In this document: positions 1,331 through 20,858 of the stretch, piece after piece
How the letters are laid out: the number at the start of each line of letters is the position of its first letter
Numbering within the stretch: position 1 is the stretch's first letter
Origin: an uncultured virus (IMG/VR IMGVR_UViG_3300050509_000576)
Taxonomy: Duplodnaviria; Heunggongvirae; Uroviricota; Caudoviricetes
DNA: 64,000 bases
Reading direction: 5' to 3' (one strand)
Virus record (IMG/VR): IMGVR_UViG_3300050509_000576
Position numbers and translations under genes: made by a program
Notes under the pieces: model-generated
Told to the model about the DNA's origin: nothing
The model's database searches: none
The model's input: only the letters and a program-made list of their open reading frames with translations

Positions 1331-1543
1331 ATGGCGTTTGATCGTGCGCACGCGCGGCGGGTATTTGAAGAGACGATTGCGCAGGTGATGGCGGAGTCCG
1401 TGCCCACCGAGGATGTCCTGGTCGAGGCGCAGACGGTGAACGATCAGGGGCAGCAGATCGTGGTGGCACGCTATAAGTTGCACAGCGATGGGCGGATCGA
1501 GTGTTTCGAGGTGCTCGATGAGGTGCTTTGGCCGAGCGTATGA
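1331..1543 (+). CDS. Hypothetical protein
   Basis: GGGAG RBS, ATG 1331; stop abuts the CRISPR repeat. Confidence 0.6.
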   Translation: MAFDRAHARRVFEETIAQVMAESVPTEDVLVEAQTVNDQGQQIVVARYKLHSDGRIECFEVLDEVLWPSV

Positions 1544-1667
1544 GTGTTCCCCACGCCTGTGGGGATGAACCGAGTACATTAGGGAACGGTAGGCACACGG
1601 AGTTTCGTGTTCCCCACGCGTGTGGGGATGAACCGCAGACTGGCCGAACCTGTCAATGCCCCACGAC
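1544..1667 (+). CRISPR. Mini CRISPR array A, type I-E-like (2 repeats, 34-nt spacer, trailing putative 32-nt spacer)
   Basis: 29-nt repeats GTGTTCCCCACGCCTGTGGGGATGAACCG (1544-1572) and GTGTTCCCCACGCGTGTGGGGATGAACCG (1607-1635) fit the I-E repeat pattern with a CCCCAC/GTGGGG stem. Confidence 0.9.
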
Positions 1668-1687
1668 GGGGCGGGAGGGTGCACCAT

Positions 1688-1936
1688 ATGAGTACGTTAG
1701 GCAATGGGGCGCACACGCCGTATCCTGGCGCGGATGGGACGCTAGAGGGCGCCCTTGCCGAAGTGGATGCCCTGCTCGCGCGGTTTGTTGCCGAAGCTAT
1801 GGTCGATGCGATGCTGCAAACACTCGATCACGACACGGACGTCGCGATCGTCTCCCCGGCTACGCTGCTACGGACTCTGGAGGCGTGGCTGGATGCCGCA
1901 GACGTCCAGCGTACCGCCGAGGACGGCGTCGCATGA
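1688..1936 (+). CDS. Hypothetical protein enclosed by CRISPR repeats
   Basis: GGGAGG RBS, ATG 1688 (MSTLGNGAHTPY...). Confidence 0.65.
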   Translation: MSTLGNGAHTPYPGADGTLEGALAEVDALLARFVAEAMVDAMLQTLDHDTDVAIVSPATLLRTLEAWLDAADVQRTAEDGVA

Positions 1937-1939
1937 AGC

Positions 1940-1968
1940 GTGTTCCCCACATCTGTGGGGATGACCCA
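1940..1968 (+). CRISPR. Solitary degenerate type I-E repeat
   Basis: GTGTTCCCCACATCTGTGGGGATGACCCA; hairpin intact, 3' end diverged. Confidence 0.8.
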
Positions 1969-1985
1969 CGAACTGGGATTGAGAC

Positions 1986-3026
1986 ATGGCCGACGCTATA
2001 AACGTGCAAATCGCCGATGCTATGACGGCGCGCCTCCTCCAGGTCGGCCGGGCCGAGACGCGCGAGCGCCAGGAGGTGTGGGCTATTCTCCTCTTGCTGG
2101 AGCAGGATCTGCTTAGTGCGCTCCGGGAAGCCGACCCGGCGCAGTTCTCGTTGCTCGTAGCCAGGCGGCGAACGGTCCAGGCGCTGATGCGCGATGAGGT
2201 GGACCCCCTCGTGACGACCCGGTACGCGCAGATTGCTCGCGACGTGGACGCGTTTCTCATCGCCCTGGCCGAGCAAGAGGCGACCAGCACGCAGCGTATC
2301 GTCAATACCGCTACCGAGGCCCGGACCATCGAGGAGGTGCCTAGTGAGACGGCGCTGCGCCGGGTCGTACGGCAGACGCTCATCCCGAGCCCGGCGACGC
2401 CGACGGATCTGAGTACCACGGGCGCGGACTGGTGGAGCCGCGCGGCGGCCGGACTCGTGACCCGTCTCGGCGATTCGCTCATGGTGGGGGTGAGCCTGGA
2501 AGAACCCACGCCGACGCTCGTTGCACGCGTGCACGGCACGGCGGCCAACGGCTTTCAGGATGGGATTATGGCGAAGGCGAAAGAGGACGCGGCCCGACTC
2601 CTGCGTACGCAGACGACGAACGCGGTGAGCGAGGCACGGGTCAAGGTGGCCGATGTCAATGCGGACGTCGTACAGGTAGAACATAGCTCGATCCTTGACA
2701 GCCATACGTCTACTCTCTGCCTAGGCAGGCATGGGTTGCGCTATACCGTGCCGGAGCATGAACCTATCAATCATAGCGTCCCGTATCTCCATGGACCCCC
2801 GTACCATCCCGGGTGTCGTAGTGAGATGATCCCTGTCGTGCCGGACGGCGGACGCGTGCCGCAACAGACGGTGAGTCAGTGGCTCTCCCGCCGTGATACG
2901 GCGTATCAGGATGCCGTGTTAGGTCCCACGCGCGCACGCATGTTTCGCGCCGGGACGCTGACCCCCCGGCAACTGATCGACAGTCTCACGGGCAAGCCAC
3001 TCACCTTAGAGGAGTTGGGCGTATGA
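1986..3026 (+). CDS. Minor head / head morphogenesis protein (SPP1 gp7, Mu F-like)
   Basis: LD..TS..C and PPYHPGCRS motifs; C-terminal LTLEEL. Confidence 0.85.
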   Translation: MADAINVQIADAMTARLLQVGRAETRERQEVWAILLLLEQDLLSALREADPAQFSLLVARRRTVQALMRDEVDPLVTTRYAQIARDVDAFLIALAEQEATSTQRIVNTATEARTIEEVPSETALRRVVRQTLIPSPATPTDLSTTGADWWSRAAAGLVTRLGDSLMVGVSLEEPTPTLVARVHGTAANGFQDGIMAKAKEDAARLLRTQTTNAVSEARVKVADVNADVVQVEHSSILDSHTSTLCLGRHGLRYTVPEHEPINHSVPYLHGPPYHPGCRSEMIPVVPDGGRVPQQTVSQWLSRRDTAYQDAVLGPTRARMFRAGTLTPRQLIDSLTGKPLTLEELGV

Positions 3027-4740: not shown

Positions 4741-4954
4741 GGCGTGTCTCCTTGTGTTAGACGGGTAGAGGGCATGAACGGGACAGCGGGACTACCCTAC
4801 ACGAAGGCGACGCGTGAGGCAAGCGGCGGGACGAGAGAAGCAACCAGGGCGGGTTCCGGCCCGCCCCAGTCGCCCTACAGACGTTCACGAGTAGCCAGGA
4901 GTGTAGCAGATCCTTGCGAGTCCTGCACGGGAGTGCGATGCTATCCGTCACCGG

Positions 4955-5530
4955 CGCTGCAGCCATGTGGTGCCGAGCCCTGCACGACGGCGTGCGCCCG
5001 GGCTAAGCACGAGGGGCCACGCCGGCAGGGCGACGCGAGGCGAGGCCACACCCAGCCGCGTCTCGTCGTGGCTCGCGTAGCGATGCCTGCGCAGCCGGGC
5101 CTTGCGACGGCACGGCCGGCCAAGTCGGGCCACGCCTGCGGCGCCTGGCCGCGCGCGGTCAAGCCAAGCACAGACTCGCGTTGCCTGCGGGGACGTGCCA
5201 AGTCTCGTCAAGTCTCGTCGCGCCACACCCAGCGATGCCAGCGATGCCAATCCTGGCCTGGTCGCGCGTTGCCTCGTCTCGTCAGGGCGTGCGATGCCAG
5301 CGATGTGCCGCCGAGCCTTGTCATCCCCCGCGTGTCCTGACGAGCCGAGCCTGGCCTGCAATGCGAATCCTCGCCGTGTCTCGTCGTGCCACGTCAGGAC
5401 GGGCGAGGCCTGCGCGGCCGCGCCATGTCGCGTCTCGCGATGCGTGTCTTGCGTGTCCTCGCGATGCCTGCGGCGCCGCGCCTTGCCGATCGCTCGAAGC
5501 GACGCCTAGACAGGCCTAGCTATGCCTGCT
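4955..5530 (-). ncRNA. Pentamer-repeat array segment 2 (about 10 units), putative VIPR-like guide RNAs
   Basis: GCC(T/A/G)GC(G/A) motif at 5021, 5085, 5134, 5183, 5237, 5296, 5354, 5408, 5466, 5524, separated by G(C/T)C-NN pentamers. Confidence 0.8.
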
Positions 5531-6302
5531 ACGGGCGGCGGCGTTCTTCAATCAAGGCCGCAATCAGGTCGAGCCGCCGGTAGACCGCTGGATTGCGGGT
5601 TTCGGCATCTGCGGCGATACGGTGCAGATGCGTAGGAAAGTACTCGTGGACCTCGATCAGGCCGAGTTGACGAAAATAGCGCGTATGCGACCGCGCTGTC
5701 CTCTCCTTAATACTACTCCGATGCGCGAGCTCACGATTGCTCAGCCATTCGTCAGTATGGCGTAACAGCGTCCAGAGGCGGGCCATGTGCCAACTGACTT
5801 CCGCATGTTCCTTGATGCGCGGGGTCGGCGGTGGAAGCTGTCCGTTGCGGGTAAGAGGCGTAGGCTCTGGGATATGCTCCAGGGCATCTAGGCGGGTGTG
5901 AATGGCCGCGATGGCCTCCTTGAGCGGGTCAATATGGACGGTGATTGTATGCACGACAGAGAGGAGGGCTTTTTCACACTGGATGAAATACTTTCGCGCA
6001 TCCCGTCCGCGTTCCGTGCGTTCGACCATACACAGCTCTTTGGCCATGTCCAGCGTCAGCGCATACATGTGCTCAGGTCTGCCTGGTTGGGTTTTACTAA
6101 AATTGTGGTAAAAAAGGTAGTCAACATCTTCAAGGAATTGATACTCGCGAATGCGATTGGTTATCCAATCATTAAAACGATGGGTAACCCGCAGCCAGGC
6201 ATGCAATTTCCGGGCATCGACCGTCTGCACAAAGGCATCCTGAATGGTCCGATATTGAATGTCAAGGACGAGTGGAGTTATGGTAAGATCTTGCTCAGAC
6301 AT
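5529..6302 (-). CDS. AntA/AntB-family antirepressor with C-terminal HTH-like domain
   Basis: VDARKLHAWL..F.DWI..RI..Y.F, Y.LTLDMAKELCMVERTERG..ARKYFI.CEK. Confidence 0.9.
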   Translation of the reverse strand: MSEQDLTITPLVLDIQYRTIQDAFVQTVDARKLHAWLRVTHRFNDWITNRIREYQFLEDVDYLFYHNFSKTQPGRPEHMYALTLDMAKELCMVERTERGRDARKYFIQCEKALLSVVHTITVHIDPLKEAIAAIHTRLDALEHIPEPTPLTRNGQLPPPTPRIKEHAEVSWHMARLWTLLRHTDEWLSNRELAHRSSIKERTARSHTRYFRQLGLIEVHEYFPTHLHRIAADAETRNPAVYRRLDLIAALIEERRRP

Positions 6303-6432
6303 GTCGTCTCTCCTACTAGAGGCGTGTGTTCAGGGGTGACAGGAGAACCCCATCTCCTGCCTACCCCGTTAGTATAGCCTGTTTCCTCTTCCCATACAAG
6401 CCGAAAATTACGCTAAGTCATTGATATGCTAT

Positions 6433-7585
6433 GCCTTGCCAGCCGCCCATAGCCCAGCCTGGCCTACATATGCCTTGGCTCGTCCAGCCACGCCTGCGGC
6501 GCCGCGTCGGTCCGGGTCACGCGGTATCATGTCGCGCGACGACACGCGCAGCCTGCCTGGCCCGGCCTTGTCGGGCCACGCTCCGTCGTCCATGCGGCGT
6601 CTCGCCATGCCCGCGATGCCCGGCCGCGCCTAGCCTCCCGGCGCCACGCGCTGGCTAGCCACGCCCGCGCCGCTTGGCCCCGCGGAGCCGCGCCGTGCCT
6701 TGGCTCGCCCTGCGACGACCTGCGAAGCCTGCGGAGTTGCGCCGAGTCTTGCCGAGTGCTGTCGAGCCCCGACGAGTCGAGCGATGTCGAGCCCCGCCTG
6801 CGACGCCTCGTCTGGTCCCGCGAGACGACGCCAAGTCTTGCCACGCCTGCGGGGCCTCGCCTTGTCTTGCCACTCTACGCCATCCTGGCTCAGCCTCGCC
6901 TGCGATGCCCAGCCCGTCCTGGCCACGCGGGGACTAGCGCCGCCCGGCGGAGCCTCGCCTGCGGCGCCTCGCCATGTCCGGCCTAGACCTGACGCGTCGC
7001 GCCGTGCCTGCGGTGCCTCGTCTTGCGATGGGCTGGCTAGCCACGTCACGCCCTGCCTGCGATGCCCGGTCCCGCCCCGGCTCGCGACGTCTTGCCGCGC
7101 GAGGCCTGCAGTGCCTCGTCTAGCGATGGGTCAGCTAGCCCCGACCCGCCGTGCCTGCGACGCCAGTCCCTGTCATGTCGCGCCCTGTCTCGCGATACCC
7201 GGACCCGCCTTGCCGTGCCTGCGGCGCCACGGTCCGCCTTGTCCAGACCTGCGCTGCCCATCCCTGCCATGTCTGTCCTGCCTGCGTCGCGCTGTCTAGC
7301 CGGGTCCCGTCGCACCTCGCCACGGCTCGCGCTGCCTGCGGCGCCTCGCCAGGCCCGGTCTCGTCAAGTCATGTCGCGCCTGGTCTCGCCATGCCTGCGG
7401 CGCCAAGTCTCGTCTGGTCATGCCAGTCGCGGCCATCGAGGCCTCGCCTGCGATACCTTGTCTAGCCATGCCCGCGAAGTCGGGCCAATCCCCGTCGGGT
7501 CACGTCTTGTCACGCCTTGCCTGCGGCGCCTGGCCTCGTCATGCGATGTCCAACCACGCCACGTCTCGTCGTGCCTTGTCTGTAC
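6433..7585 (-). ncRNA. Pentamer-repeat array segment 1 (about 21 units), putative VIPR-like guide RNAs
   Basis: GCCTGCG (minus strand CGCAGGC) recurs mostly at 49/54/59/64/69-nt spacing (9+5n), e.g. 6957, 7006, 7055, 7104, 7153; the intervening pentamers have a constrained triplet and a variable dinucleotide. Confidence 0.85.
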
Positions 7586-13191: not shown

Positions 13192-13725
13192 ATGGCCCTC
13201 GATGCCACGCCGGCGGGGAGTGCGAGTAACAGTTACGTGACTGTTGCGGACGCGACCCTGTACCTTCAGCAGCGCCCGTATCACGAGGCGTGGGATGCCG
13301 CGCTGGTCAGTGGCGATGCGGCCCCGGCACTCATGTGGGCCACGAGCCTGCTCGATAGCCTGGTGCACTGGTACGGGACGCCGACCACACCGACGCAGGC
13401 CCTGGCCTGGCCGCAAACGGGGCAGGTCGATCGCTATGGGCGCCCGATTGATCCGCTGCTCATTCCCATTCGGTTGGAGCAGGCGACGGCCGTGTATGCC
13501 CTCGCGCTGCTCGGCGATACGACGCTGAGCCAGCCGAACGGCGGCAGTCAGCAGGCAGGGATCAAGTCCACGAAGATTGGCGGGACGACGATCACCTATC
13601 AAGACACGACTAACGCCGTGGCGGCCACGTCTCCCGTTACCAGCGTGCCGAGCGAGGTACGGGCCTTGCTCAAGGGGTACGGGGTGATGGCGGGCATGAT
13701 CGCGATTCCGATTCTGCGGACGTAG
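13192..13725 (+). CDS. Head-tail adaptor
   Basis: NSYVTVADA..Y, AL..AT..LD, QALAWP motifs; position after the capsid genes. Confidence 0.8.
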   Translation: MALDATPAGSASNSYVTVADATLYLQQRPYHEAWDAALVSGDAAPALMWATSLLDSLVHWYGTPTTPTQALAWPQTGQVDRYGRPIDPLLIPIRLEQATAVYALALLGDTTLSQPNGGSQQAGIKSTKIGGTTITYQDTTNAVAATSPVTSVPSEVRALLKGYGVMAGMIAIPILRT

Positions 13726-20182: not shown

Positions 20183-20256
20183 TACTATGATATAATGAGG
20201 AGGTAAGGCTTTCGCGCTTGCCTTCTGGGACAGGCGAGGATTGAAACAGGTGACCT

Positions 20257-20736: not shown

Positions 20737-20858
20737 CTGTTCCCCGCGCGCGCGGGGATGAACCGTACACACTGACCTTTTTCATAGCACCTAGTATCTG
20801 TTCCCCGCGTGCGCGGGGATGAACCGAACCACCTCTGCACATCATACACGGTAGTCAC
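20737..20858 (+). CRISPR. Mini CRISPR array B, type I-E-like
   Basis: Repeats CTGTTCCCCGCGCGCGCGGGGATGAACCG (20737-20765) and CTGTTCCCCGCGTGCGCGGGGATGAACCG (20798-20826); 32-nt spacer; trailing putative spacer. Confidence 0.9.

Follow-up and report, generated by a model that had tools for sequence, protein, structure and literature searches.

The 64,000 nucleotides of phage DNA analysed here (the window) contain a mini-CRISPR of two 29-nt type I-E-like repeats around one 34-nt spacer, and this apparently cas-less array probably borrows the type I-E machinery of the host to attack related phages. The array would be transcribed within the head-gene operon, whose strand it shares (a promoter or leader of its own was not found), and host Cas6e would cut the two hairpin repeats and deliver spacer 1 into Cascade, as is established for type I-E systems. 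Cascade-Cas3 would then destroy a co-infecting relative with the matching allele of ORF 1688, for which the match and the PAM are seen and the cutting is predicted. The carrier would survive, its own allele having six paired mismatches from position 15 on, an escape expected from E. coli data. As phages of the population recombine, tight linkage would then stop the guide from being parted from the resistant allele.

Repeat 1 (1544..1572, + strand; 29 nt) begins directly after the upstream stop codon, with no leader, and is followed by spacer 1 (1573..1606, +; 34 nt), the putative guide against the ORF 1688 allele of relatives, and by repeat 2 (1607..1635, +; 29 nt), which differs from repeat 1 by one mismatch, with 0 matches expected from 100 shuffles. 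A degenerate repeat 3 (1940..1968, +; 4-5 mismatches), absent from the preliminary description of this DNA, as was a second I-E-like mini-array at 20737-20826, constitutes the terminal repeat of a second slot, in which the relatives G006 and L024 have 2-spacer arrays, that of L024 closed by a repeat identical to repeat 3. All three repeats fold into a 7-bp hairpin, intact in repeat 2 and kept in repeat 3. We take them to be of type I-E from the consensus of such repeats, together with the 32-34-nt spacers and AAG/ATG PAMs seen here; an Rfam search returned nothing near the gathering score, and no sigma-70-like promoter was found in 1-2300. Terminal I-E repeats are recurrently trailed by a copy of their own last 4-5 bases (L024 564-597 and 903-936; window 20827).

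Genes for head morphogenesis, capsid, tail, and tape measure mark the window as a piece of a tailed phage, whose capsid relatives among cultured phages show less than 60% identity. Its six reading frames contain 209 ORFs of 100 aa or more, and no cas family was detected in the 71 selected ORFs scanned with Pfam or the 30 scanned with PHROGs, in a window that covers part of the genome; to that extent the array can be called cas-less. The repeats and spacer 1 of the preliminary description are confirmed. Because neither the host nor its cas genes were found, the head gene having no match in GTDB, we infer both the I-E type and its activity. Contigs from the same sequencing runs bear the repeat of the array with other spacers, and no RNA run was listed among those with this DNA. 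Integrase and serine recombinase were each found in 0 of 5 records, all five incomplete, and the relative G002 is classed as a provirus. A Major facilitator superfamily transporter gene lies inside the phage at 49052-50272 (PF07690, E 2e-14).

As had been described, spacer 1 matches 1691-1724 at 25 of 34 positions directly behind an ATG; shuffled spacers gave best matches of 19-23 in the window, and 24 was reached in 0 of 300 shuffles. This ATG is both the PAM and the start codon of the accessory ORF 1688 (1688..1936, +; 82 aa), which contains the phage's own diverged protospacer, with mismatches at positions 6, 12, 15, 18, 19, 20, 28, 29, and 32. Translation bears out that the spacer encodes STLGNGRHTEF against the resident STLGNGAHTPY and that the first four mismatches are synonymous. 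In the array-less relative G011 (L007/L022), the match rises to 32 of 34, with mismatches at 18 and 21 only and the ATG start codon again as PAM, while the allele types of G002, G006, L024, and the window reach 25-26/34. The earlier proposal that host Cascade is directed at an array-less allele is supported by this relative, and the homing coupled to it is possible. The perfect protospacer that had also been anticipated was not found in IMG/VR, and in the metagenome collection a degenerate pattern for spacer and alleles retrieved 5 stretches, among them neither a perfect target nor a host array with spacer 1.

Viral contigs hold seven relatives of ORF 1688, three of them identical to the window. 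All seven homologues are small and unannotated or hypothetical, and ORF 1688 has no Pfam or PHROG family, its Atlas matches falling below the bar. The alleles identifiable in four sequencing runs are the poor targets (25-26/34), the 32/34 allele coming from another contig; in run X2 one low-depth contig differs at 1709, representing either the targeted allele or an error.

In type I-E pairing every sixth base is unpaired, and of the nine mismatches between spacer 1 and the own allele, six fall at paired positions from 15 on. For E. coli, ATG is among the optimal PAMs listed, in agreement with the preliminary description, interference needs more than 18 bp, and Cascade does bind a target mismatched over 19-32 but neither interferes with it nor primes from it (PMC5904413). 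By these rules on PAM, pairing length, and distal mismatches, if they extend to the host of this phage, cutting is expected for the G011 allele and at most binding for that of the phage itself. The seed of the own allele is intact because the M-S-T-L-G start is invariant (first five residues, 7/7 homologues). No escape signature is seen in the protospacers of ORF 1688 and ORF 1331; that of ORF 1688 is no more variable than the rest of the gene (mean pairwise differences 7.0 vs 2.0-9.2 in other segments).

Comparison with relatives revealed several states of the locus. Upstream of the array lies ORF 1331 (1331..1543, +; 70 aa), without a Pfam or PHROG family and with 11 relatives in viral contigs, and beyond ORF 1688 lies the Mu gpF-like head morphogenesis gene (1986..3026, +; PF04233, E 4e-7; phrog_241, E 1e-57). 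In the simplest state, that of G005, the head gene follows directly on the 70-aa gene, and ORF 1688 is missing at the slot in G003, G004, and G005. G002 and G011 also contain ORF 1688, as a module with a duplicate of the head-gene start at its flank, while the window, G006, and L024 have I-E-like repeats on either side of ORF 1688, with different spacers. The first slot of G006 has collapsed to a single repeat, and this relative has nearly the ORF 1688 allele of the window without spacer 1. A relic of the duplicated head-gene start persists in the window as resident DNA (1636..1687, +) flanking the module; it aligns to the array-less G011 and G002, its first four bases matching no relative, and G005 has this very sequence as its head-gene start.

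Within this relic, 1640-1663 had been regarded as a trailing spacer resembling the head-gene start. The 15/24 match was reproduced and is at chance level (in 300 of 300 shuffles the best match in the window is 15-19), a closing repeat is absent, and array-less relatives have orthologous resident DNA (32/40, 31/40), for which reasons it was rejected as a spacer. The claim that the spacers encode variants of the two adjacent genes thus holds for ORF 1688 and fails for the second gene, there being only one spacer here. Removal of repeat 1 plus one base does arithmetically give the ATGAGT overlap that had been pointed out, but this is uninformative, as the left junction of L024 is almost identical although its first spacer differs; G011 does have an ATGA overlap, but through a longer upstream ORF, so that the proposed overlap is not supported.

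Alleles with and without the array were recovered from the same runs (joints in X7 and X8), and in both of these runs several locus states stand alongside the window allele, contigs indicating presence only. The window is 90-96% identical to L024 left of the array and 94-97% identical to G006 right of it, against ~80% further off. Judged from sequence comparison, these patches of a few hundred bases among array bearers fit a guide and a resistant allele that travel together, and are as compatible with ordinary recombination as with homing. No further junctions between an I-E repeat and the head gene were found beyond three window-identical contigs. The more distant relative G007 (L020) has a six-repeat I-E array (4880-5215) upstream of the orthologue of ORF 858, two spacers of which weakly resemble family genes at least 3 kb upstream.

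A second type of repeat shares these slots. Directly before the head-gene start codon, the window retains the relic of a type I-D repeat 3'-end (1975..1985, +), of which G003 and G004 have longer remnants, and in relatives this repeat end occupies the same slots as the I-E arrays, and others. The assignment to type I-D follows from the long host arrays that the same repeat end builds in several bacterial genomes and from its position beside Csc1, Csc2, Cas6, and Cas1d in L080; in L075 it lies beside a Cas4g/Cas1g fusion, and the host search returned it in 32 stretches from unrelated taxa. Type I-D systems are described as having a GTH PAM and 3'-trimmed crRNAs (PMC10212523). Relatives exchange I-E and I-D arrays at identical slots. 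G014 (L095) has a four-repeat I-D array at 13422-13690, whose second spacer matches relatives at the beginning of the following gene (30/34, GTT), its own PAM being CTT.

The proximity of the targets to the arrays was assessed by mapping 23 spacer queries on 594 kb, of which 18 (17 distinct) came from the family and 5 from further phages carrying the I-D repeat. Four of the 17 distinct family spacers were firmly matched, all with targets at most 300 nt from their own array and all with the PAM proper to their type: the window spacer at 32/34 behind ATG, L024 at 30/32 behind AAG, G002 at 31/38 behind GTN, and G014 at 30/34 behind GTT. In each of the four, the own orthologue (118, 202, 99, and 275 nt from the spacer, respectively) fits worse than the best relative. 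L024, with a different spacer in the same slot, matches the other flanking gene (30/32, AAG), its own allele being mismatched in the seed, and the I-D spacers of G002 and G014 likewise match adjacent genes with GTN PAMs. The window has the orthologue of two such targets in segment 1364-1402 of ORF 1331, which the I-E spacer of L024 fits at 26/32 with a seed mismatch at position 2 and the I-D spacer of G002 at 29/38. The own alleles of L024, G014, G015, and G002 show PAM or early seed changes. Eleven of the 17 spacers had no target in the 594 kb mapped, and two had weak matches at least 3 kb away without an AAG PAM.

Since the relatives had been found through local genes, sensitivity was measured: random 33-mers were detected (at least 28 matches) in 117 of 300 cases, and in 69 of 80 cases close to the slots. 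Weighted by detection, adjacency has a chance of ~0.02 per detected spacer, which, with the selected window spacer left out, gives P ~9e-6 for adjacency in 3/3, 4e-4 under pessimistic sensitivity, and 8e-5 if the two weak matches count as distal; of these three, that of G002 stands behind a solitary repeat and was first noticed through its match rather than picked blindly. Outside the family, the G013 spacer has a 33/38 match behind GTC in G018, within the gene immediately upstream of either array, the G015 spacer fits the neighbouring gene of its own genome at 30/36 behind ATC, which is not a PAM, with all six own-copy mismatches at every-third positions, and three of the five had no target. 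These unrelated phages (L102 and L105, that is G020 and G015; L091 and L093, that is G013 and G018) share the I-D repeat end, with spacers that match the repeat-adjacent gene.

The array is thus a further example of a known strategy, and the family raises its weight. As in SPV1 and SPV2 (Medvedeva 2019, PMC6858448), the mini-array has 1-2 spacers between repeats, a PAM-bearing target in close relatives near or adjacent to the array, a mutated own orthologue, and relatives with different spacers at the same slot. Like the mini-arrays of bacterial phages it is leaderless (Faure 2019, via PMC6858448 and PMC7099407), and the former source cites the same work for phage arrays that target adjacent genes. 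Compared with these mini-arrays, the present case concerns an uncultured soil phage in which the same slots carry now I-E-like, now I-D arrays; an accessory gene separates two of the slots, alignments show repeats in the place of PAMs, and the own allele retains the PAM and the seed. The family bears on target proximity, the origin and consequences of which PMC6858448 calls unclear, and its co-occurring relatives, in which a given slot may be empty or filled with an I-E or I-D array, should, together with the adjacency figures and the junctions at which a repeat stands for a PAM, make capture, linkage, and homing separable.

Other phage-borne repeat units resemble the array less closely. Cracr/CreR guides are likewise phage-borne I-E repeat-spacer units that use host Cascade on a partial, PAM-bearing match, but those described have 21-24-nt spacers and are directed at host cas promoters (10.1101/2024.10.29.618823), whereas here the spacer is full-length (34 nt) and its best, near-perfect target is the coding region of a related phage. 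The solitary repeat units known as Racr (PMC10651486; PMC11656645) resemble the solitary or truncated intergenic repeats of the window (repeat 3, 1975-1985, and 20233-20247), while the main unit here has two repeats and a true spacer.

The I-D junctions bear on whether arrays enter by capture. At the head-gene start, the repeat end in G003 and G004 stands where the repeat-less G005, G011, and G002 have GTG, GTC, and GTC. At a second locus, a gene ~5 kb (5.1 kb) upstream of the window, present in G012:13475 and G005:10475 (G012 is identical to the window across 8340 bases), a repeat-length I-D piece displaces the native leader and ribosome-binding site, and its end point in repeat-less orthologues is GTC in G002 and G004 and GCC in G003. 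With a GT frequency of 0.054, GTN at the repeat end in 3/3 and 2/3 orthologues has a chance of ~0.003 as a pair, a figure that comprises two events only, and a role of the repeat in ribosome binding would also limit where it can lie. Because the I-D repeat ends exactly at the GTN PAM of relatives, these alignments suggest that arrays land by spacer-protospacer recombination; the I-E junction of the window is not clean in this respect, the four bases after repeat 2 matching no relative. Recombination of a host spacer into its protospacer has been reported for staphylococci (as cited in PMC8616872), and leaderless phage arrays are presumed to arise through recombination with host arrays (PMC7099407). 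That arrays enter in this way and carry with them neighbouring spacers primed from the same region, which would place the target next door, is a reading we hold to be evenly balanced.

A doubtful but compatible addition to competition through host Cascade is RNA-only homing, in which, during mixed infection, host Cascade-Cas3 or I-D Cascade would cut an array-less genome beside the slot and repair would copy in the array with the resistant allele, as in intronless homing but with a borrowed nuclease, possibly adding a drive component. The targets at 99-275 nt from the slot have the geometry of the free-standing homing endonucleases of T4, which act hundreds of bases away in a neighbouring gene and leave the carrier resistant (PMC2988022); array bearers share the flanking identity patches, and the insertion removed the PAM at two I-D loci, much as a homing insertion destroys its own site. 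The T4 elements encode their nuclease, whereas the slot here holds only repeats and spacer and would need host Cas3 or Cas10d. Array bearers also target one another (the L024 spacer matches the array-bearing G006 at 30/32), capture with ordinary recombination accounts equally well for patches and adjacency, and the target gene, accessory and missing at the slot in three relatives, is a poor lasting homing site. Furthermore, Cas3 carries out processive degradation rather than making a clean break.

An equally tentative extension is that the repeats themselves are selfish, guided by RNA alone: once a host spacer has recombined into its protospacer, a repeat that replaces the PAM would turn the resident gene start into a guide, make its carrier immune at once, and spread through relatives by homing. 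Host I-D or I-E Cascade would then attack repeat-less relatives at the exact orthologous site, driving the repeat, the array, and the linked alleles. If so, many of the solitary repeats that precede phage genes would be armed guides instead of decoys, and the target adjacency of mini-arrays would be a direct consequence. A literature search returned no paper with homing, linkage, or repeat-for-PAM readings of mini-arrays, ideas that may nevertheless be in print.

It is unlikely that the captured pieces are inert scars or RNA decoys, which would persist by being harmless, supplying a ribosome-binding site, or titrating host Cas6/Cas7 as RNA anti-CRISPRs, the spacer having lost its importance. 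The phage family does contain many solitary and truncated repeats, often 0-4 nt ahead of a start codon, a repeat takes the place of the native ribosome-binding site at one locus, slots shrink to single repeats (repeat 3 of the window; first slot of G006), and most family spacers have no known target. However, repeats 1 and 2 are intact, even the degenerate repeat 3 still has its 7-bp hairpin, and the poorer fit of the own allele in 4/4 firm family cases looks as if the guides were active now or formerly. Very unlikely is self-repression, in which the crRNA would park Cascade on the own 1691-1707 without cutting and tie ORF 1688 or the head operon to the level of host Cascade: although the PAM is intact, pairing to position 14 is unbroken save at 6 and 12, E. 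coli Cascade binds such targets without interference (PMC5904413), and phage guide RNAs that redirect I-E Cascade to repress transcription exist (10.1101/2024.10.29.618823), the latter as described have short spacers and promoter targets, whereas this full-length spacer matches the relative much more closely than the phage's own allele (32 vs 25 of 34) and targets a coding region with no promoter-like site found in 1-2300, the seed is kept through the M-S-T-L-G invariance, G006 with almost the same allele has no such spacer, and the own alleles of L024, G014, G015, and G002 are changed in PAM or early seed, so that any such effect is probably a by-product.

The second I-E-like mini-array (20737..20826, +) has another repeat variant and one AT-rich 32-nt spacer (20766-20797), and sits between tail-region genes. 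No target was found for this spacer or for the shared second-slot spacer, viral contigs containing only array copies of them. In relatives the same slot holds a decayed I-E array (G002), the four-repeat I-D array (G014), or single I-D repeats (G003, G016). Close by, at 20211-20247, a solitary hairpin with a ATTGAAAC-type repeat end lies 9 nt before a 130-aa gene and is possibly a third repeat type, a candidate solitary repeat unit. Elsewhere in the window, long low-complexity stretches at 4900-5500 and 6400-7500, composed of short GC-rich imperfect repeats with strong strand skew, flank an antirepressor gene (5529-6302).
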